Of a stretch of DNA of 64,000 nucleotides, positions 9,836 through 45,694 are shown piece by piece. The DNA is from an uncultured Hellea sp. (GTDB lineage Bacteria; Pseudomonadota; Alphaproteobacteria; Caulobacterales; Maricaulaceae), in the NCBI GenBank assembly GCA_905477785.1, contig CAJQGR010000008.1:4900-68899 (forward strand), in the 5' to 3' direction. The position numbers were made by a program, and so were the translations under genes. The notes below the pieces were generated by a model that worked only from the letters and a program-made list of their open reading frames with translations, did no database searches and was not told the origin of the DNA. The first letter of the stretch is position 1. The number at the start of each line of letters is the position of its first letter.

Positions 9836-11347
9836 ATGCTTCCTGATTCAAACATTAAAAACATAGTTATTGTGGGCGGAGGTACTGCAGGGTGGATGAC
9901 AGCTGCGGCTATATCGCGCCTGCTTAACCACCCAGAGATTAAAATAAATTTGATCGAGTCAGATACCATTGGCACAGTTGGAGTTGGCGAAGCAACAATA
10001 CCGCATTTAAGATTCTTTAATCAATTACTTGGTTTGCATGAAGATGACTTTGTGAAGAAAACTAATGCTACTTTTAAATTGGGTATTGAATTCGTCAACT
10101 GGGATAAAATTGGAAAAAGTTATATTCACCCCTTTGGGCCATATGGGGTGCCAATGGGAGGCTTGCGGTTTCACCATTACTGGCTGAGACAAAAACAGAT
10201 GGGAAGCCAAATTCCAATTGATGATTATAATTTACAAATAATGGCAGCTAAAGCAGGTAAATTTCATAGACCACAGAATATAAAAAAATCGCCACTCAGC
10301 ACTATAGATTATGCCTTTCATTTTGACGCTACACTATATGCAAAATACATGCGAGAATTCTCAGAAAAAAATGGAGTTAATCGCATAGAGGGTAAAATTG
10401 TCAAATGTCATCAAAATTCTAAAAACGGTTTTATTGAAAACGTACAACTCGAAAATGGCCAAATAATACAGGGAGATTTATTTTTTGACTGCTCCGGCTT
10501 TAGAGGATTGTTAATTGAGCAAACATTAGAGACTGGATATAGTGACTGGTCTAATTATTTACCCTGCAACAGTGCAGTAGCTCAAGCAAGTGAAAAAGCT
10601 GAAGATCCAATACCATACACAAAAGCCACAGCTAAAGAGGCTGGTTGGCAATGGCGTATTCCTTTACAATCGCGAACAGGTAATGGACATGTCTATTGTA
10701 ACGATTATATTTCTGATGAGGAGGCCTTGAAAAGCTTACATAAAGGCATGGATAGTAATCCAATTGGCATTCATAAACAGTTACGGTTTAAAACTGGAAT
10801 CAGAAAAAAAACTTGGAATAAAAATGTTATTTCATTAGGATTAGCAGCCGGTTTCTTAGAGCCTTTAGAGTCTACTTCAATCCATCTTATTCAAACTGCA
10901 ATAGCTCGTTTAATGACAAATTTTCCCGATAAACACTTCAATGAAGCAGATATAAATTATTATAATCAAAGGACTCTACTAGAATATGAACAAGTCAGAG
11001 ATTTTTTAATACTACATTATAAAGCAACCGAACGAGACGATACTCCATTTTGGAATTATTGTAGAAATATGCAAATACCAAATACTCTAAAAGAGAGAAT
11101 GAATATTTACATGGAAAACGCGAGACTTTATCGTCATGATAACGAATTGTTTGGCGACGCTAGCTGGTTTGCAGTTATGCATGGACAAAATATGCATCCA
11201 CAAAGGTTTCATCCAAATGCTAATATAATGCCTGATGCTGAATTAGATAAACGTATGTCTGAAATCCATAAAACCTGGGCGGCTTGCTTGGATACATTGC
11301 CAACTCATCAAGAATACATTGATCAGCACTGTAAATCAAATATCTGA
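9836..11347 (+). CDS. Flavin-dependent (tryptophan-halogenase-like) protein 1
   Basis: VGGGTAGW, VGVGEAT, ATFKLGIEFVNW (PrnA K79-equivalent Lys), GWQWRIP (WxWxIP), GFLEPLESTS. Confidence 0.93.
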   Translation: MLPDSNIKNIVIVGGGTAGWMTAAAISRLLNHPEIKINLIESDTIGTVGVGEATIPHLRFFNQLLGLHEDDFVKKTNATFKLGIEFVNWDKIGKSYIHPFGPYGVPMGGLRFHHYWLRQKQMGSQIPIDDYNLQIMAAKAGKFHRPQNIKKSPLSTIDYAFHFDATLYAKYMREFSEKNGVNRIEGKIVKCHQNSKNGFIENVQLENGQIIQGDLFFDCSGFRGLLIEQTLETGYSDWSNYLPCNSAVAQASEKAEDPIPYTKATAKEAGWQWRIPLQSRTGNGHVYCNDYISDEEALKSLHKGMDSNPIGIHKQLRFKTGIRKKTWNKNVISLGLAAGFLEPLESTSIHLIQTAIARLMTNFPDKHFNEADINYYNQRTLLEYEQVRDFLILHYKATERDDTPFWNYCRNMQIPNTLKERMNIYMENARLYRHDNELFGDASWFAVMHGQNMHPQRFHPNANIMPDAELDKRMSEIHKTWAACLDTLPTHQEYIDQHCKSNI

Positions 11348-11501: not shown

Positions 11502-14500
11502 TTAGAACTGATACCTTAGACCAACTCTAATACGTCTATCTCCAACAAAACTAGTTCTCCCGAAGCGTTGACCATCAGCAGAAATTTGCTGCGATGCCTT
11601 AGCCTTTGTATCTAGAATATTGGCGACCTGGACACGGAACTGCAAGTTATCATTAAAGTCATACTTTGCAGATGCATCAAGATAACCTCTTTCCTCCTGG
11701 ATAATAGGAGCGCCTGTTACATAATCACGATACGAGCTCAAATACTCTGACCTCCAGTTATATGCTAGTCTAAATTCAAACTGCTCATCTTGATATATAC
11801 CAATCAAGTTAGCAGAGTGATCAGATAGGCCTAAGAAATCCTGCACACCAAAACGATATATTCTTTCGAATGAGTCAGGAATACCATCGTTATTTGCATC
11901 TGCAATCGCGGCTGGTGGGTTAGTCTTAGCCTCAATATAAGTATAGTTAGCTTGCAATCCTAAGTTTGAAAATAAACCAGGCAGATCATCAAAGAACTGA
12001 GTATAGGCAACTTCAAATCCTTGAATTTCAGCTTCATCTTGGTTTAGATCACCATTAAATACAACAGGAACTTCTACACCATCCAGTGTTTCGGTACCAA
12101 TAGTTTGCGAAGCATAGACTATATTGTTTTTGATATTTTTCTTGAAAAGTGAAAGTGTAAATGAGTTGTCATCACCAAAGTAATGCTCATATGACACATC
12201 AAAATTCCATGATGTAATCGCTTCAAGATCCGGGTTACCACCATAAATACTGATTTGCTGAGGTGTTATGGCTTGTATAATGCCGGGAACTACAGAGTCG
12301 TCCACATCATAACCGAGGTTAGCAACTGCAACCTGGTCAGCTCTTAACTGAGCAACATTTGGACGCGTAATACCCTTACTCACACCGAAACGAATTAAGG
12401 CTTCATCATTAAGGTTCCATTTAGCATTAAAAGACGGAAGCCAGTAATCGGTTGTATTAAACTCACCGTCAAACTGCGTATCCGCTTGGTCAAAATAAGC
12501 AACAGTTCCAGGAGCAAAAATTGCTTCATTGGCACCTGTTATATTTATATAATCAACCCCGCCTGTTCCTTTAACATCAGTAGATGTGTAACGAATACCT
12601 ACGTTACCATCAATTGACATACCATTATTAAACTCATTGCCAAAATCTAATTTTGCGTAGAAATCTTGAGTTTTCTCTTGAATTGATCCAATTAGGCCTC
12701 GGTTATCATAATCAACAACTCCATTAACACGCAGAGGCTGCCAATCACCTATTTGTGGATTACCAGCTGCATTTACTCCAGTACCAAGCAATGCTTCGCC
12801 TTGAAGCGATGAAACCCAAGCATCATAGTTTTGCAACAGAGCTCTATCTACAAATAGTACGGATGTATTGTTACCTACAACTGTGTCGCCGCGGAAGAAA
12901 TCAGTAAAATCTACTTCTTCGTATCCACCTTGAGTCAAGTCGGCCATTGGCATATATCCACCAGCCCAAGGAGCGGCAACAGATGCCCAGTTCAAACCCG
13001 CTGAGCGGTTTGTCTGGTCACGCTCAGCAATTCGCGCGCCAAATTCGATTGAGTCAAACCAACCGTCGCCGTCAAATTCATACTCAACATCGGCTTTAAC
13101 CGCGTACATGTCACCTTCATTATCATTAAACTCATCTGCTGAGAAAAGAAGGTAAGCATTTCTTGGGTCGTTGAGAGCGTCTGTTGCTGATGCCTGACCT
13201 CCTGTTCTTGTCAAATACGGGTTACTCGCAGCGCCTATAAGCTCAACTTGCGGGTTATCCAAATCTGGGTTTATTGTGAAGTCTGAGAAGAAACGTGTAC
13301 CGCCCCAGAGACGTTCTTTTGTAAATTCAGCAGTAGTCTTGTGTGCATCAATATTGATAAACAAACGCTCAGATGGCTGCCATTTAATATTTAGTGACAT
13401 ATCATCTGTTACTGAACGATCTTTTTGGTGTATTGCAAGGTTTGTGAAATTGGCACCGTTGGAACCAGTCCAATCACGTAGGTTGTTTGAAATTACACCC
13501 GTTTCATAAAGTCCGGTAATGGAATATGTATTTTCACAAACAAAGTTTGGATCATTAGCGCCATTACATGATGGAATATCTGCAGAAAAAGGGGTAGTTG
13601 TAAACCCAGGTGCTATGTTAGTTAGGTTGCCTGGAGGGTTACCTGGGAAAAAGCTTTCACCATCTGGAAAGAATTCTAATGTTCTCTCGTCCTGGTCTAC
13701 ACTGTTTTCGATACGCGCAAATTTAGCTGTAGCTTTAAAAGTGCCATCATTATTTTGCCACTGGCCAGCTACGTAGTAACTGTCTCGGCCTCTATCAACT
13801 TCGTTTGTACGAAGCTGAAAACCACCCGGAACACCTATTAGTTCACTTGAACCTGCAGCTACAGGAATCGGAAGAAGTTGACCCACTTGGAAACCATGTA
13901 AGTCTGACTGTAATTCTGATGATGAGAATGATGCGAGTAAACCGAACTCTCCATTTGTACTATCCCAGCGGTTACTGGCGATTACGCTGTAATCTGGGCT
14001 CCACTCGTTGCGAAGGTCAGTATAAGTGCCATCTATTGATGCAGACATAAAAGATCCTGTCTTATCAAATGGCTCAAGTGAACGAAGATTAATGGTACCA
14101 CCAATACCACCTTGGATAAGGTCAGCTGAAGCGTTTTTGTAAACATCAACAGCGCCTATTAATTCTGGAGGAACAGTACCAAAATCTAAAGAACGACCGC
14201 CATTAGCAGAAAAAGCATCTCTACCATTAAATTCAGAACGTACTAAAGTAAGACCCCGAATAAGGTTGCCTCCGCCTTCAGGTGAAGGGAAGTCACCTTG
14301 GCTTCCTCCTAAACCAAAACGCTGAACAACAACACCAGGAACTCGGGCTAATGCCTCAGCAACTGATAGATCAGGTAGTGCACCAACGTCCGAAGCCGTA
14401 ATAGAGTCAACAGCTGTATCAGCATTTCTCTTGAGGTCTCTTGCAGTCTTGATAGCTTGACGAATACCCGTCGCAACTACTTCACCTTCTTCCTCTACAT

Positions 14501-14642
14501 ATGTTTCCTCTGCTGTAGCTGAAGATGTATCTTCCTGCGCATACACGGGTGACATTAAACCAAAGCTTGCAACTAATGCTGTTGTTCCCAACAACGCTAG
14601 CTTATTTAGACGCTCTACTGACGCATTAATATTAGAATTCAC
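11502..14642 (-). CDS. TonB-dependent receptor (Caulobacter/Xanthomonas carbohydrate-uptake type)
   Basis: Signal peptide, EVVATG TonB box, plug motifs DSITASDVGALPDLSVAEALARVPGV and IDVYK/GGIGGTINL, C-terminal Phe (LRYQF). GTG start with AAGGGAG RBS. Confidence 0.95.
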   Translation of the reverse strand: MNSNINASVERLNKLALLGTTALVASFGLMSPVYAQEDTSSATAEETYVEEEGEVVATGIRQAIKTARDLKRNADTAVDSITASDVGALPDLSVAEALARVPGVVVQRFGLGGSQGDFPSPEGGGNLIRGLTLVRSEFNGRDAFSANGGRSLDFGTVPPELIGAVDVYKNASADLIQGGIGGTINLRSLEPFDKTGSFMSASIDGTYTDLRNEWSPDYSVIASNRWDSTNGEFGLLASFSSSELQSDLHGFQVGQLLPIPVAAGSSELIGVPGGFQLRTNEVDRGRDSYYVAGQWQNNDGTFKATAKFARIENSVDQDERTLEFFPDGESFFPGNPPGNLTNIAPGFTTTPFSADIPSCNGANDPNFVCENTYSITGLYETGVISNNLRDWTGSNGANFTNLAIHQKDRSVTDDMSLNIKWQPSERLFINIDAHKTTAEFTKERLWGGTRFFSDFTINPDLDNPQVELIGAASNPYLTRTGGQASATDALNDPRNAYLLFSADEFNDNEGDMYAVKADVEYEFDGDGWFDSIEFGARIAERDQTNRSAGLNWASVAAPWAGGYMPMADLTQGGYEEVDFTDFFRGDTVVGNNTSVLFVDRALLQNYDAWVSSLQGEALLGTGVNAAGNPQIGDWQPLRVNGVVDYDNRGLIGSIQEKTQDFYAKLDFGNEFNNGMSIDGNVGIRYTSTDVKGTGGVDYINITGANEAIFAPGTVAYFDQADTQFDGEFNTTDYWLPSFNAKWNLNDEALIRFGVSKGITRPNVAQLRADQVAVANLGYDVDDSVVPGIIQAITPQQISIYGGNPDLEAITSWNFDVSYEHYFGDDNSFTLSLFKKNIKNNIVYASQTIGTETLDGVEVPVVFNGDLNQDEAEIQGFEVAYTQFFDDLPGLFSNLGLQANYTYIEAKTNPPAAIADANNDGIPDSFERIYRFGVQDFLGLSDHSANLIGIYQDEQFEFRLAYNWRSEYLSSYRDYVTGAPIIQEERGYLDASAKYDFNDNLQFRVQVANILDTKAKASQQISADGQRFGRTSFVGDRRIRVGLRYQF

Positions 14643-14735: not shown

Positions 14736-14751
14736 TTGACAGCGCTGTCAA
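14736..14751. promoter_or_regulatory. LacI-type operator, copy 1 (TTGACAGCGCTGTCAA)
   Basis: Perfect 16-bp palindrome with an AnCGnT centre, in the divergent receptor/halogenase intergenic region. The same core recurs at 19446-19461. Confidence 0.8.
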
Positions 14752-14940: not shown

Positions 14941-16443
14941 TTGAAAATTGAGAAAATTTGTATCGTGGGCGGCGGCACAGCGGGGTGGATGTCAGCAGCT
15001 GGTTTATCTAATAAATTCAGTGATTTAGGGATATCTATAGAACTCGTAGAGTCAGATAAAATTGGTACAGTAGGCGTCGGAGAGGCCACCCTTCCACATA
15101 TAAGGTACTTTAATAATTCTTTGGGAATAAATGAAAAGGATTTTATGCTGGCTACCCGAGCTACATTTAAACTGGGAATAGAATTTTGCGATTGGGGCAA
15201 AATTGGAGACCAATATGTGCATCCCTTTGGTGACTACGGAATACCTATTGATAACATTGAATATCATCATTTTTGGTTAAGACTGTTGCAGAAAGGGCAC
15301 AAGTCTAGACTTTGCGATCACTCTTTTCCAGTCTTAGCAGCCGAATCTGGGAAATTCCAACACCCGCAAGGTGATAACAATGAAATTGGCTCTAACTTTG
15401 GGTATGCATATCAATTTGATTCGGGCCTTTATGCTAAATTTTTGAGGAAATATTCTGAGGCTAGGAATGTCATAAGAACAGAAGGCCGAGTTACAGAAGT
15501 TCTCCAAAACCATGAGAACGGAAACATCACCTCGATACTATTGGAAGACGGGTCTACGATTGAAGCAGATATTTTTATAGATTGTTCAGGTTTCAGAGGC
15601 CTACTTATAGAGCAAACACTAAAGACAGGTTATGAGGACTGGAGTAACTGGCTCCCTTGTAACAAAGCCGTTGCCGTTCAATGTGAACAAGAAGGGCCTA
15701 GCCTTCCCTACACCAGGGCAACAGCTAGAACAGCAGGATGGCAATGGCGTATACCGCTTCAGCATAGAACAGGTAATGGATATGTATACTGGGATAAATA
15801 CATTTCAGATGATGAGGCAACACATCAGCTACTGAGCACATTAGAAGGAAGGGCAATAACAGAGCCAAAACAGCTTTTCTTTAAAACAGGGAAAAGAAAA
15901 AAATTATGGCAAAAAAATGTAATAGCGATTGGTTTGTCAGGGGGGTTCATGGAACCCTTAGAATCCACTTCAATTCACCTTATTCAAGAGGGTATAACCT
16001 CACTAATAGAGCTCTTTCCTGATAAATCTTTTCCTGAAAGCGATATAGAAGAGTACAATCGCCGTATGAATTTAAACTTTGATAGAGTTCGTGATTTCTT
16101 GCTTCTGCACTATGTAGCAACGCAGCGAGATGATAGTGATATGTGGAACTATTTTCGCAATATGACCTTACCATCAAGCCTAAAAGATAAAATCACAGCG
16201 TGGAACAATAGAGGATATTTAACTAAATACGAACACGGCGTATTCCACCCACCCAGCTGGTTGGCAGTGATGGCGGGTCAAAATTTAATGCCAAAATCTT
16301 ATGATATTAGGGCAAATCGTATCGATTATAATATCATTAAATCAAAATTAGACTCCATAAGAAATGACAATAGAATAGCTGTTAAAAATACACCGGAGCA
16401 TGCTTCATATTTACAAGAATATGGCGCTAGCATAGTTAAATAA
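14941..16443 (+). CDS. Flavin-dependent (tryptophan-halogenase-like) protein 2
   Basis: VGGGTAGW, ATFKLGIEFCDW, GWQWRIP, GFMEPLESTS. TTG start with AGGAG 8 nt upstream. Confidence 0.93.
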   Translation: MKIEKICIVGGGTAGWMSAAGLSNKFSDLGISIELVESDKIGTVGVGEATLPHIRYFNNSLGINEKDFMLATRATFKLGIEFCDWGKIGDQYVHPFGDYGIPIDNIEYHHFWLRLLQKGHKSRLCDHSFPVLAAESGKFQHPQGDNNEIGSNFGYAYQFDSGLYAKFLRKYSEARNVIRTEGRVTEVLQNHENGNITSILLEDGSTIEADIFIDCSGFRGLLIEQTLKTGYEDWSNWLPCNKAVAVQCEQEGPSLPYTRATARTAGWQWRIPLQHRTGNGYVYWDKYISDDEATHQLLSTLEGRAITEPKQLFFKTGKRKKLWQKNVIAIGLSGGFMEPLESTSIHLIQEGITSLIELFPDKSFPESDIEEYNRRMNLNFDRVRDFLLLHYVATQRDDSDMWNYFRNMTLPSSLKDKITAWNNRGYLTKYEHGVFHPPSWLAVMAGQNLMPKSYDIRANRIDYNIIKSKLDSIRNDNRIAVKNTPEHASYLQEYGASIVK

Positions 16444-16445
16444 TA

Positions 16446-17936
16446 ATGAATAATTCTAACATAAAAAATATTATCATATGTGGAAATGGATTAGCTGGTG
16501 TAATAACTACAGCAGCACTGGCCAAGGCACTGCCAAAGGAAACCAAATTAACGTTAATAGATACCCTCTGCACTCACGAAAAAGATATATTTTACGGAAA
16601 TGTAACATCAACATCAACTTACGCATTTTTACTAAGTTTGGGCATAACTGAAATTGAACTATTAACCCAAAGCAACACGTCTTTTTCATTAGGAACACAT
16701 TATTTAGACTGGGGCGAGGAAAAAAATTCATGGTATCAATGCCATCATCAACCTCTACCCCTGATACAAGGAGTAATGTTTCACCACTATTTAAATCGAA
16801 TCACCGCCAAATTCCCAGAGCAATCAGCTATAGGTCCCTATATTATGTCTGTGTGTGCAGCTAATAAAGGGGTTTTTGCCCACCCATCAAAAGACCCTAA
16901 AAATCCCTTAAAAAATATAGAATATGGTTATCATTTTCATCCTGCTGAATTACGAAAAATAATAGGTAGAAAATTAGATAACTGGGATATAAATATAGAA
17001 AAAGGAAGCATAAAATCCATCGAAAAATCTAATGGAGAAATTAAATCTTTAACATTATCCAATGGCGCTAATATATCAGGTGATTTTTTTATTGATTGCA
17101 CTCAGGGTAATTTAGGAATTTATGATAAGCGTATTAATTTTGGACATAATCGTACACTCAAAGCGGTAGAGAATATTTCACCTCATAACGAGATAATCGG
17201 CTCTTGTAGAAAAGTTCATGGCAATATTGAAAAATGGAAATCACAAACATTTTTACAAGATAAACTTCAAATACTTAATATAAGTGAGATATCCAACAAA
17301 AAAGATAATGATACTGAATCACGAACTCATCACTCAACCGGTGTTACCATTACCACTGGTTTTTCTGAAAATCCCTGGATAAATAATTGTCTTAGATTAG
17401 GACATAGTGCAGCTGTATTATCACCATTAACACCAGCACCCATTATGCTTTTACAAAATGATGTTAAGAGGATGTTGGAGCTAATTCCAATTTCGCACGA
17501 TATGAAAATTGAAGCTAAAGAATATAACCGCCGTTTCACAGAGGATTATATTCACGCATCTACATTCGAGAGTGCATTTCAACCCGCCCAGACCATTATA
17601 AAAAAAGAAAGCTATGAAAACAAAATTGAAGAACTAATTTATGATAAACTTAAAAATAAAATAATGCAATTTAAGAGTAGAGGCATTGTTCTGCAATATG
17701 ACCTTGAACCATTCAACAATGAGGACTGGATCCAGATACATTTGGGTATGAAACGCATACCAAAAAGGTATGACGCATTAGCAGATAGGCTCGATGAAAC
17801 TCAGCTCATAGAAACACTAAAAAACATCAAAAAAAATAATTTTATAATATCAGAAAAAATACCCCCACTTAACAAATACATCACAGGATTGATAAAATAT
17901 CTCAGGAAGCAGAATGACAAAGTCCAATCAAAATAA
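16446..17936 (+). CDS. Degenerate tryptophan-halogenase-like protein 3 (predicted catalytically inactive)
   Basis: Full length and collinear with its neighbours (ICGNGLAG, YGYHF, GDFFIDCT). FKLGI is FSLGT, WQWRIP is WKSQTF and FLEPLES is VLSPLTP. Confidence 0.8.
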   Translation: MNNSNIKNIIICGNGLAGVITTAALAKALPKETKLTLIDTLCTHEKDIFYGNVTSTSTYAFLLSLGITEIELLTQSNTSFSLGTHYLDWGEEKNSWYQCHHQPLPLIQGVMFHHYLNRITAKFPEQSAIGPYIMSVCAANKGVFAHPSKDPKNPLKNIEYGYHFHPAELRKIIGRKLDNWDINIEKGSIKSIEKSNGEIKSLTLSNGANISGDFFIDCTQGNLGIYDKRINFGHNRTLKAVENISPHNEIIGSCRKVHGNIEKWKSQTFLQDKLQILNISEISNKKDNDTESRTHHSTGVTITTGFSENPWINNCLRLGHSAAVLSPLTPAPIMLLQNDVKRMLELIPISHDMKIEAKEYNRRFTEDYIHASTFESAFQPAQTIIKKESYENKIEELIYDKLKNKIMQFKSRGIVLQYDLEPFNNEDWIQIHLGMKRIPKRYDALADRLDETQLIETLKNIKKNNFIISEKIPPLNKYITGLIKYLRKQNDKVQSK

Positions 17937-19431
17937 TATAAAAAATATAGTTATTGTAGGCGGAGGCTCAGCGGGCTGGATGACAGCTGCCGCTTTATCA
18001 AGCATGTTAAGCCCTAATAATGTAAATATTACACTGATTGAGTCAGAACAGATTGGCACTGTGGGAGTTGGAGAGGCAACAATTCCGGATATGTTAAATT
18101 TCAATGCTATGCTGGGGATTGATGAAGCTGAGTTTTTAAAAGCAACAGATGGAACATTTAAACTGGGAATAGAATTTAACAACTGGGGTCGCAAAGGCGA
18201 CTCATATTTTCATCCCTTCGGTAATATTGGCGTAGATATGCAAGGGATTGACTTCCATCAATTTTGGCTTCGCTCTAAAGAGGGAGGCAGTACTGCAAAG
18301 TTGCAAGATTATAGTATCTGCGCAGTCGCAAGTGTCGAAAATAAATTTTCTATGCCAGATCAAAACCCAAGATCTTTATTATCTCATTTACGTTATGCAT
18401 ATCATATTGATGCAACCAAATATGCGAAATACTTACGTAATTATGCTGAATTAAGACACGTTAATCGTTTGGAAGGTAAAGTCACTCAAGTAAACCTAGA
18501 CCAAGAAACTGGAAATATAGCCAATCTTCAAATGGAAAGTAAACAAATTATAGAAGGTGATTTCTATTTTGATTGCACTGGGTTTAGGGCTTTACTGTCT
18601 GATGGAGCACTTAAGGTGCCATTTACAGATTGGAGCCACTGGTTACCTTGCGATAGCGCTCAAACTGTAGCAAGCAAACAAAAAGGAGAACTTTTACCCT
18701 ATACGAAAGCCACAGCTAAAACAGCTGGGTGGCAATGGAGAATACCCACCCAACGTAGAACAGGTAACGGGCATATTTATTCAAGTAAATTCATGAGAGA
18801 CACCGATGCAACTGAAGTATTATTAGATGGGATCGACAGTGAACTTATTGGAAACCCACGTAAAATAAGCTTTAAAACTGGTTGTCGTAAAAATTTATGG
18901 AATAAAAACTGTATTTCCATTGGTTTATCAGCAGGCTTTTTAGAGCCATTGGAGTCAACTTCGTTATATCTCATTCAAGTGGGTATTAGTAAATTTATAT
19001 CTCTATTTCCGACAACTGAAGTTTCAGAGGTGGTGAGAAGCGAATATAACAAACAGATGTTAAAAGAATTTCATCAAGTTCGTGATTTTATTATATTGCA
19101 TTATAAAGCAACAGAACGGGATGATAGTGAATTTTGGAATTATTGCAGAAATATGAGTGTTCCGGACAGCTTAAGTGCCAAAGTAGAACTTTTTAGAGAA
19201 GCAGGTAGAGTATTTAGATATGATGATGAATTATTCTCGAAGCCTAGCTGGATCGCAGTTTGCTTAGGGCAGAATATAATACCAAAGAACATTGACCCCA
19301 TAATTTCCTCATTACCGTTTAATCAAGTGCAGCATAGTCTCGACTCCATGCAAAATGCCATGAAAGTTAGTGTAGATAAAATGAAAACTCATGAAGAATT
19401 TATCAAGCATTACAATGCCAGCTCTATATAG
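17914..19431 (+). CDS. Flavin-dependent (tryptophan-halogenase-like) protein 4
   Basis: VGGGSAGW, GTFKLGIEFNNW, GWQWRIP, GFLEPLESTS; overlaps the previous gene by 23 nt. Confidence 0.93.
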   Translation: MTKSNQNNIKNIVIVGGGSAGWMTAAALSSMLSPNNVNITLIESEQIGTVGVGEATIPDMLNFNAMLGIDEAEFLKATDGTFKLGIEFNNWGRKGDSYFHPFGNIGVDMQGIDFHQFWLRSKEGGSTAKLQDYSICAVASVENKFSMPDQNPRSLLSHLRYAYHIDATKYAKYLRNYAELRHVNRLEGKVTQVNLDQETGNIANLQMESKQIIEGDFYFDCTGFRALLSDGALKVPFTDWSHWLPCDSAQTVASKQKGELLPYTKATAKTAGWQWRIPTQRRTGNGHIYSSKFMRDTDATEVLLDGIDSELIGNPRKISFKTGCRKNLWNKNCISIGLSAGFLEPLESTSLYLIQVGISKFISLFPTTEVSEVVRSEYNKQMLKEFHQVRDFIILHYKATERDDSEFWNYCRNMSVPDSLSAKVELFREAGRVFRYDDELFSKPSWIAVCLGQNIIPKNIDPIISSLPFNQVQHSLDSMQNAMKVSVDKMKTHEEFIKHYNASSI

Positions 19432-19442
19432 CTTATTTTAGA

Positions 19443-19464
19443 TATTTGACAGCGCTGTCAAATA
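19443..19464. promoter_or_regulatory. LacI-type operator, copy 2 (TATTTGACAGCGCTGTCAAATA)
   Basis: Perfect 22-bp palindrome about 60 nt upstream of the ATG at 19523. It contains TTGACA (19446-19451), with TATAAT at 19467-19472. Confidence 0.8.
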
Positions 19465-19522
19465 CTTATAATTACAACAACATATAGTTTTTGTTGCTTT
19501 GATTACGGATAGGATTTTAAAT

Positions 19523-20203
19523 ATGAGTAAACTTCGTTTAATTCTAATATTATCTCTGACTAGTTTTTTACCCGCCCAAAGTGAAGACATAGGCTCTATC
19601 GAAGAAATAATAACAACAGGAACTATTCAAACTGACCCAGCAATGTCGGCTTGGCGTGCTGGGGATTTTGCCACTGCTGAAATTGAATTTAAACAAAATG
19701 CTTTTTGTGCATTAAGGGTTGAACGTAACTTCATTTCAGGGCTTGAGGGAGCCAGAGACAGTACAATACGCTCTGATGTTGGAACAGATATTGATCTTCC
19801 CGCCCAACCATCAGGCGGCTTAGGAGGTGCAGTTGTAGCACCAACGACACAACCTGTAATACCTAAGGTTCAGCTCAATTCATCGGATTTTAGAAATAAA
19901 GATAATGAAGGAACACGTACATGCGAAGATAGGGGTTTCCAAATTTACATGATGGGTATGTCACAACTAAAGCTTGGAAAGCGTGATGAAGCCAAAGCAA
20001 CACTTTTAAGATCAACAGGGTTAAGAAAAAACTTATATGATGCGCATTTCAGGTTGAGTTTAATGGAATACCAAGACAACAACCTCAAAAAAGCGAATGA
20101 ACACTATAAAAAATTAAAAAAACTGGGGTCAAAATGTAAAAAATGTGTGGCAAAAAAAGAGATTGTGGCACAAATTAAATACCTTGAAAACCTTCTCGGA
20201 TAG
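19523..20203 (+). CDS. Secreted hypothetical protein with C-terminal TPR-like helices
   Basis: Signal-peptide-like N-terminus (MSKLRLILILSLTSFLPAQS), EEIITTG motif, helical repeats (YMMGMSQLKLGKRDEAKATL, DAHFRLSLMEY), CKKC near the C-terminus. AGGA RBS before ATG 19523. Confidence 0.65.
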   Translation: MSKLRLILILSLTSFLPAQSEDIGSIEEIITTGTIQTDPAMSAWRAGDFATAEIEFKQNAFCALRVERNFISGLEGARDSTIRSDVGTDIDLPAQPSGGLGGAVVAPTTQPVIPKVQLNSSDFRNKDNEGTRTCEDRGFQIYMMGMSQLKLGKRDEAKATLLRSTGLRKNLYDAHFRLSLMEYQDNNLKKANEHYKKLKKLGSKCKKCVAKKEIVAQIKYLENLLG

Positions 20204-20237: not shown

Positions 20238-20834
20238 ATGTTAAACCGAATATTTATAACGATATTTTCTTTTGCTCTTTTAATATTTGGAGCAAACATA
20301 ACTTCTTCTGCCGATGAAATGAATAGCTCAAGTGATCAGAGAGCATTTCCGTTTTTAGTCAGTAGTCTAAATTTTGACTGGGTAACCTACGGGCCAGACA
20401 AAAGAGAAAAAATAGTGGAATCAGAAGGTGCTCCAAGCGGAATGGCCTACAGGGTTACTGTAAGAAAGAAAAAACCTAACTCTTGGGACATAGCAACACG
20501 TAATGATATGGTAAAAGATATCAAAAAAAATGATATCATAGTTGTTTCTTTCTGGGCCAGAGCAGCCAAACCTCAAAAAGGGAAGGAAAAAGGCGATATT
20601 TTAGTCGCATTACAAAGAAATATAGAACCTTATGACTCTGTCATTGAAGAACGTATTGCGCTCGATAAAGAATGGAAACTCTATTACCTCACAGGAAAAG
20701 CTAACCGTGACTATGCAGCTGAAAGAACTGAGTGGAACTATAACCTAGCTTTTGCCAGACAAACTGTTGAGCTTGCGGAGTTTTACGTTACAAATATAGG
20801 CCCTGATGGGGACCCAGAACAATACATGCCATAA
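20238..20834 (+). CDS. Secreted stand-alone carbohydrate-binding module (CBM4/9/22-like beta-sandwich)
   Basis: Signal peptide, then PNSWDI, VSFWARA, EPY, LDKEWKLY pattern typical of CBM_4_9-like domains. No catalytic domain. Confidence 0.65.
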   Translation: MLNRIFITIFSFALLIFGANITSSADEMNSSSDQRAFPFLVSSLNFDWVTYGPDKREKIVESEGAPSGMAYRVTVRKKKPNSWDIATRNDMVKDIKKNDIIVVSFWARAAKPQKGKEKGDILVALQRNIEPYDSVIEERIALDKEWKLYYLTGKANRDYAAERTEWNYNLAFARQTVELAEFYVTNIGPDGDPEQYMP

Positions 20835-45397: not shown

Positions 45398-45694
45398 CTA
45401 ATCCTCTCCCAATGCCACTCGAACTTGCCTTATAACTCGGTCTAACTCTTGGGTGGTCTCGTCAGCCAATATGCCAAACTCTTTTTCACGAGCTAAGAAA
45501 TCTTTCTCTTTCGCATAACTTGCATCAAGCTTAGCAGCAAGTGCTGCCCTGTCTGCACTCATGGCATCTGATTCTTTTTTTAAAGCTTCCAAACGACTCA
45601 CTTTATCTAATAGAGAGTCGATAGAACCCCCTAATTTACCAATTGCTGACTTTAATCTGTCAGATGCTTCTTTTATGTCAGCGCTGTCATTCAT
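45398..45694 (-). CDS. DUF4164-like coiled-coil protein
   Basis: Short coiled coil (DRAALAAKLDA) upstream of zapA, as in other alphaproteobacteria. Confidence 0.7.
   Translation of the reverse strand: MNDSADIKEASDRLKSAIGKLGGSIDSLLDKVSRLEALKKESDAMSADRAALAAKLDASYAKEKDFLAREKEFGILADETTQELDRVIRQVRVALGED

Follow-up and report, generated by a model that had tools for sequence, protein, structure and literature searches.

A conserved, non-halogenating member of the flavin-dependent halogenase fold in a four-paralogue, TonB receptor-linked cassette

Why would a bacterium keep, between two halogenase genes whose catalytic motifs are all in place, a third gene of the same fold from which those motifs are gone? 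The question is raised by a 64,000-nucleotide stretch of DNA from an uncultured Hellea sp. (hereafter the window), in which a gene that we call X (16446–17936, + strand) encodes a 496-aa non-halogenating member of the Trp_halogenase (PF04820) fold with its GxGxxG motif kept. X is preceded by an A-type paralogue (14941–16443, +) and followed by a B-type paralogue (17914–19431, +); a C-type paralogue (9836–11347, +) belongs to the same cassette. A, B and C, which a preliminary description of the sequence had numbered halogenases 2, 4 and 1, all carry the full set of catalytic motifs. What is new here is a subfamily of conserved pseudo-halogenases that forms part of a receptor-linked cassette with four paralogues.

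The X frame runs for 496 codons without a stop in the open reading frame (ORF) listing and its translation. In this region (G+C, 33%), the remaining two forward frames contain 46 and 55 stops, the chance of a stop-free frame of 496 codons is about 1e-17 given the region's own composition, and the longest open stretch among 2000 shuffles of the region was 170 codons. The stop codon of A ends at 16443, leaving a 2-nt gap before X, and the ATG of B, at 17914, gives a 23-nt overlap with X. Both this start codon and a Shine-Dalgarno sequence, AGGAAG (17904–17909), fall within the last 33 nt of X (17904–17936, +). The intact ORF and the spacing of X between its neighbours were thus just as the preliminary description had given them.

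Its account of the altered motifs also matched our alignment of X with the neighbouring paralogues, word for word. The dinucleotide-binding motif of X reads IICGNGLAG, so that GxGxxG is retained (GNGLAG, residues 13–18). In contrast, the loop that contacts flavin adenine dinucleotide (FAD) reads GTVGVGEAT in the neighbours and EKDIFYGNVT in X, the catalytic Lys motif FKLGI is replaced by FSLGT, the WxWxIP site (GWQWRIP) by EKWKSQTF, and the catalytic Glu and halide site (FLEPLESTS) by VLSPLTPAP. Offsets from PDB alignments place PrnA K79 at K83 of the downstream gene (P0004), whereas the equivalents of PrnA K79 and E346 in X are Ser81 and Thr329, the substrate-sandwiching His of canonical enzymes is Gln98, and WxWxIP is missing. 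PrnA, RebH, Thal and PyrH, the prototypes of PF04820, nonetheless share with X a homologous fold and the same Pfam family. X scored 178 bits against this profile, in two pieces (cut-off, 21 bits), compared with 600–622 bits for the three neighbours; when the genome was searched, X matched profile positions 1–211 and 302–457 but not the middle, which holds WxWxIP. Judged by these residues, X is incapable of the lysine-directed halogenation of this family, and it may well catalyze nothing at all.

The same losses run through the whole X subfamily, for which we compared 77 members with 32 canonical sequences from the same loci. No member has Lys at the catalytic Lys position (0/77; Ser in 87%, otherwise Ala, Cys or Thr) or Glu at the catalytic Glu position (0/77; Thr in 78% and Ser in 21%, together 76 of 77 members). 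The second Trp of WxWxIP is absent in 77/77, the sensor Glu of the FAD loop (GxGEAT) is found in no member, the Ser-Thr-Ser of the canonical halide site has become x-Ala (97%)-Pro (96%), and a segment of about 12 residues is deleted relative to the canonical enzymes. The first Gly of GxGxxG is present in every member that spans the motif, the second in 83% (it is lost in about 10%), and the third position is Gly in 53% or Ala in 30% (83% together), while the Asp of FxDCxG is retained in 96%. The acidic residue at the end of strand beta-2, which binds the cofactor ribose in folds like this one, is Glu in canonical enzymes and Asp39 in the window's X, but Asp or Glu in only 54% of X members.

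The subfamily also has a conservation pattern of its own. About 36 positions are conserved at 88% or more across the 77 members and are not shared by canonical enzymes; the polar ones include D47, Y59, T84, W96, Q98, H146, E159, Y162, D339 and R342, and further E356, D367, K405, Q408, R412, D419, E421, D427 and H432. Because several of these positions belong to the former active site, ‘dead’ can be said of X with regard to halogenation only, not to every function. Signature motifs (DIFYGxVTSP, FS(L/F/Y/W)GT, GVFAHP, EYGYHF, GWxSxTP and EPLTPAPIMLLQRDIERL) permit automatic separation of the subfamily from true halogenases. This is of practical use, as X-type proteins are named ‘tryptophan 7-halogenase’ or hypothetical protein in public databases, and the former label inflates halogenase gene counts in marine metagenomes; no NCBIfam model matches X. 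The window's X itself deviates from the subfamily consensus at some sites that are about 90% conserved elsewhere (P56T, P148S, G263K, E326S).

X shares about 25% identity with any of its neighbours, against 50% among the three neighbours themselves. Relatives of X turned up in a word-indexed search at identities from 72% to about 32%, Asticcacaulis being the source of one, and an exhaustive HMMER scan of 1.8 billion cluster representatives returned about 60 clusters (at 50% identity) whose scores lie well above those of canonical halogenases. In a maximum-likelihood tree, these sequences form one clade, on a long and fully supported branch apart from all canonical sequences. The low identity and the separate clade led us to reject a recently inactivated duplicate of a neighbour as the origin of X. 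The preliminary description was therefore right that this paralogue is intact and has lost its catalytic motifs, but needs a shift of emphasis: the phylogeny makes X a member of an old monophyletic subfamily, an ancient separate lineage and not a decayed copy of the gene next door. Within this subfamily, X of the Hellea clade sits on a long branch, yet is under purifying selection within that clade.

Is X maintained by selection, or has it simply not yet been disrupted? We estimated the ratio of nonsynonymous to synonymous substitution rates (dN/dS) with the Nei-Gojobori method for the window, a variant from the population at 99% identity and three further relatives (about 70% identity). For X, dN/dS was 0.12–0.20, and the unsaturated comparisons gave omega = 0.196 at dS 0.45 and 0.151 at dS 0.20. 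The ratios were 0.04–0.09 for A, 0.05–0.07 for B, 0.03–0.05 for C and 0.03–0.05 for the TonB-dependent receptor. Over 48 complete loci, X diverged 2.45 times as fast as A, B and C (interquartile range, 2.26–2.66), a constant excess with the narrow spread that weaker but steady constraint predicts. The ORF is full length in 57/60 orthologues of X, one of the other three ending at a contig edge, and of 14 listed population variants of the window's X, 13 are full length, with 1–5 substitutions. Finally, X is retained in a metagenome-assembled genome (MAG) of 1.83 Mb (97% complete), a size at which a useless gene of 1.5 kb would not be expected to persist.

A decaying pseudogene, open by chance, could account for the loss of all halogenase motifs and for X being the fastest-evolving gene of the cassette. 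Against it stand the low dN/dS, the improbability of so long an open frame, the full-length orthologues, some 60 clusters with conserved motifs of their own in three proteobacterial classes, and the survival of X in a streamlined genome; we give this explanation practically no credence and reject decay on the selection and conservation data. The preliminary description had proposed a selected pseudoenzyme and named dN/dS near 1, with frequent disruption in relatives, as the pattern that would speak against it. The data clearly do not follow that pattern.

An AlphaFold2 (AF2) model of X, built from a 30-sequence subfamily alignment, reached a predicted local distance difference test score (pLDDT) of 88.7 and a predicted template modelling score (pTM) of 0.88. 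Foldseek matched it over its full length to BrvH (6frl), Xcc4156 (6y1w) and the halogenase of Pseudoalteromonas sp. L11 (9luq), with TM-scores of 0.80–0.83 and E ~1e-32, and these three are also the closest to X by sequence in the PDB. The model thus predicts that X retains the box-plus-pyramid fold of flavin-dependent halogenases, the two-part fold of the three enzymes, at a similar length. The three are ‘open-site’ flavin-dependent halogenases of marine and plant-associated Proteobacteria, the L11 enzyme being known here from its PDB entry only. They have the whole set, GxGxxG, the Glu of the FAD loop, the catalytic Lys and the WxWxIP and halide sites, whereas X keeps only GxGxxG; the window's A, B and C score 440–516 bits against them, and X 93–130 bits. 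No solved structure of an X-subfamily member was found in the PDB. BrvH and Xcc4156 brominate indole or model substrates in vitro (PMC5945002, PMC7336383), BrvH with an activity of 2.5 mU/mg on indole (PMC5945002), and soaked crystals of Xcc4156 either lost diffraction or contained no FAD (PMC7336383). All crystal structures of halogenases of this fold, PrnA, RebH, Thal and PyrH included, contain the same dimer (PMC7336383).

Where X occurs, it occurs in one arrangement. Scanning one genome per species with X-specific peptide patterns yielded 60 loci. They come from Alphaproteobacteria (Hellea, Litorimonas, Algimonas, Robiginitomaculum, Maricaulis, Oceanicaulis, Henriciella, Asticcacaulis, Sphingomonas and Sphingomicrobium), Gammaproteobacteria (Paraglaciecola, Glaciecola and Colwellia) and, in the Betaproteobacteria, one Alcaligenaceae MAG. 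The order A-X-B(-C) holds at all 60 loci, with A upstream in 58/58 and B downstream in 58/58 cases where the contig allows, and at every locus X is without the three catalytic motifs. A TonB receptor lies inside the fetched flank at 50/60 loci. At the first ten loci, the genes are a TonB-dependent receptor, A, X and B, usually followed by C, a TPR-like protein and a CBM_4_9 protein. The stop codon of X is found 22–41 nt upstream of the GxGxxG motif of B in 40/41 loci, irrespective of the start codon assumed, which forces the start of B to abut or overlap this stop. Each of the four paralogues, A, X, B and C, is monophyletic (95–100 in the Shimodaira-Hasegawa-like approximate likelihood ratio test, SH-aLRT), and the same sub-clades recur in all four trees, which argues that the cassette is inherited and transferred as a block.

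In the window, the TonB-dependent outer-membrane receptor (11502–14642, − strand) is transcribed divergently from the A-X-B unit. A perfect, operator-like 14-bp palindrome, TGACAGCGCTGTCA, lies in the receptor/A intergenic region (14737–14750), and an identical second copy lies just past the stop of B (19447–19460). The two copies bracket exactly A-X-B, where 0.07 matches would be expected by chance in the window, and TGACAGCGCTGTCA is probably the operator of one regulator. A copy with one mismatch is found at 45676–45689.

The second position of the cassette is filled by degenerate paralogues even beyond the X subfamily. We searched samples of about 300–400 genomes of the class with X and then with A (X-model search at E <= 1e-10, with scoring limited to five candidates per genome). 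A degenerate paralogue directly follows every A-type gene examined; this was true of 5/5 genomes with an A-type gene, and in two of the five the degenerate paralogue sat where the X-model search had listed no match. At the three loci examined that lack an A-type gene (L095, L119 and contig C64 of the host genome), no degenerate paralogue was found. Further degenerate paralogues directly after A-type genes were seen in Robiginitomaculum, Sphingomonadales and other Alphaproteobacteria. In the Sphingomonadales protein, GxGxxG is gone and reads CGKSHELWP. A single origin of X and these other types (‘Y’ types) is weakly supported (69), on long branches.

In one related lineage, the degenerate paralogue is fused to its neighbour. 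Eight clusters (at 90% identity) of 984–989-aa proteins consist of a degenerate paralogue followed by a canonical B-type enzyme that is 52% identical to the window's B. The N-terminal half reads YILGDNVIG, without GxGxxG, and FSLGE at the Lys motif, and both WxWxIP and EPLES are missing from it. Two independent metagenome samples show the order receptor, A, fusion, C, which by gene order is the arrangement of the window with positions 2 and 3 joined. As in classical fusion evidence, this suggests joint action of the position-2 protein and B as a single unit. A further fusion of 1019 aa (P0232 type) lies on a 2x long-read contig with fragmented neighbours and was not counted as evidence.

What, then, is the role of X? 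The explanation that we favor, with a probability of roughly 0.5, is that X is a non-catalytic subunit, a scaffold or activator, maintained by selection in a hetero-oligomeric assembly with the catalytic paralogues. It draws on the dimers in halogenase structures, the junctions suggestive of coupled translation and the fusion in a related lineage. X would be co-transcribed and translationally coupled with A upstream and B downstream, with C provided by the same cassette; it would associate physically with A, B or both, replacing one protomer in the dimer type that halogenases of this fold form; and the mixed assembly would have its place of action in the cytoplasm, its substrate being a compound taken up by the neighbouring TonB-dependent receptor. 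More tentatively, and with odds that we put clearly below even, the receptor-linked A-X-B-C cassette as a whole may encode a halogenase that obligately consists of several subunits. X would be its essential non-catalytic protomer, pairing with A, given the degenerate paralogue after each A-type gene examined, and made 1:1 with B. There is a precedent in the ‘prozyme’ of trypanosomatid S-adenosylmethionine decarboxylase, an inactive paralogue that is under selection and works by pairing with its active relative. The prozyme, however, has another fold and comes from another domain of life, and the pairing of X is suggested by gene order and fusion. Among the roles that the preliminary description offered (heterodimer partner, carrier, FAD store or regulator), the partner idea gains from the invariant gene order at 60 loci, the block inheritance and the fusion.

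Several observations weigh against X as a structural subunit. The residues that now occupy the former pocket show tight conservation (Ser where canonical enzymes have Lys, Thr in place of Glu and Gln98 in place of His, as well as Trp96, Asp47 and Ala331-Pro332), and a remodelled functional site fits such X-specific residues better than an inert scaffold does. Correlations of distance matrices, both mirror-tree and partial, were seen for all pairs in the cassette (r = 0.59–0.83), and no particular partner of X stands out. Cassettes of B-like and C-like genes without a degenerate member exist (L095), which means that a partner of this kind is not needed everywhere. In the fusion, the degenerate half is only about 23% identical to X and belongs to a different degenerate lineage; the fusion therefore argues by position, not by orthology. 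AF2 modelling of the natural 987-aa fusion, with a shallow alignment for the degenerate half, gave a pLDDT of 78 and a pTM of 0.66 with a disordered linker (61–78 pLDDT across five models), values that speak neither for nor against a fixed interface.

The strongest rival takes the conserved pocket at face value. X may have been neofunctionalized, either for a different chemistry, such as a flavin-dependent oxygenase-type step or a cofactor-independent reaction, or as a protein that specifically binds or carries the imported substrate, acting in the same pathway as A, B and C without being their structural subunit. This would explain why about 36 X-specific positions, many of them polar, are so well conserved and why the replacements are themselves conserved (Ser in 87% for Lys, Thr or Ser in 99% for Glu); with GxGxxG largely kept and the FxDCxG Asp at 96%, a dinucleotide could still bind. 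Yet a flavin site is poorly preserved, given that the ribose-binding acid persists in little more than half of the members, the FAD-loop Glu is never present and the second Gly of GxGxxG is lost in about a tenth. Moreover, related position-2 paralogues dispense with GxGxxG altogether (CGKSHELWP, YILGDNVIG), so the role of this position apparently needs no flavin, and X evolves 2.4 times faster than the catalytic paralogues. On balance, we regard neofunctionalization as unlikely, though a serious competitor. A good deal less probable is a regulatory or cofactor-handling accessory that senses substrate or flavin state and modulates A, B and C, or holds FAD/FADH2, without being a stoichiometric subunit. 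Most X members do keep the Rossmann motif, a flavin reductase gene is not among the genes of the locus, and the junctions, together with the putative operator copies on either side of A-X-B, imply that X is tightly co-expressed with A and B. But X has no DNA-binding or signalling domain in Pfam or Foldseek searches, the halogenase fold spanning the whole protein, its flavin-contact motifs beyond GxGxxG are lost, and the natural fusion to a B-type enzyme points to a 1:1 stoichiometry and away from a regulator.

If X is indeed a subunit, the consequences reach beyond this locus. Flavin-dependent halogenases are sought-after biocatalysts, but in the TonB-linked group of marine and plant-associated Proteobacteria the natural substrate is not known and performance in vitro is poor. 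A protein such as X between catalytic paralogues points to a missing component of the TonB-linked halogenases. If the obligate multi-subunit reading is true, the recombinant enzymes of this group that have been studied singly, BrvH and those from Xanthomonas, may have lacked in the assays a partner protein that is always present in related multi-paralogue cassettes. This could account for how little activity they show, for the difficulty of FAD binding and for natural substrates not being known. Loci like that of the window were described by Iyer, Abhiman, de Souza and Aravind (2010), who reported a TonB receptor and SapC together with one to three tryptophan halogenases and a JmjC/2-oxoglutarate dioxygenase, and noted that, in the halogenase homologues, the conserved lysine is retained along with the Rossmann fold (PMC2938197). 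Their loci are of the kind seen here, in that several PF04820 genes accompany a TonB-dependent receptor in alpha- and gammaproteobacteria, but a member without the Lys, or a fixed A-X-B-C order, is not mentioned in their paper. Our TonB/SapC/PF04820 searches gave only this paper, and no Lys-less halogenase member of this type was found in the literature searched. Nor did we find a paper that joins ‘halogenase’ and ‘pseudoenzyme’, with most subscription journals lying outside the coverage; as far as this search reached, X would be the first pseudoenzyme described in this enzyme family.

Some features of the cassette vary between loci. In the Hellea clade, the receptor gene separates the C-type gene from A-X-B, whereas C comes directly after B in most other loci; by comparison of gene orders, this is a local rearrangement of the cassette. 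The receptor gene of the window and that of a population variant share just 87% identity (dS 0.81), although the flanking genes of the two are 99–100% identical. By contrast, relatives that match the window at 72–92% in their other genes have a receptor with 97% identity; this looks like allele replacement through recombination.

Other PF04820 proteins of the group occur in further combinations. Canonical halogenases are found fused to DUF6445 (~745 aa), to Cupin_8/JmjC (~870 aa) and to a methyltransferase domain, and canonical-canonical double halogenase proteins exist as well (P0228); these fusions and doubles point to a multi-enzyme pathway. Related loci carry DUF6445 or Cupin_8 genes. The host genome holds a fifth PF04820 gene (contig C64, 2395–3999), which is solitary and divergent (425 bits) and sits on a long tree branch; a pattern search did not find WxWxIP in it, and no degenerate partner adjoins it.

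Downstream of the A-X-B unit, the window encodes a TPR-like 234-aa protein (19499–20203, +) and a CBM_4_9 carbohydrate-binding-module protein (20238–20834, +), both of which are kept downstream of the cassette in many loci. Accessory genes at other cassettes include PAPS reductase-like and CysN/C-like genes (sulfate activation), GH3, GH9 and GH97 genes and a SASA esterase gene; as these differ between cassettes, the imported substrate may differ between loci.

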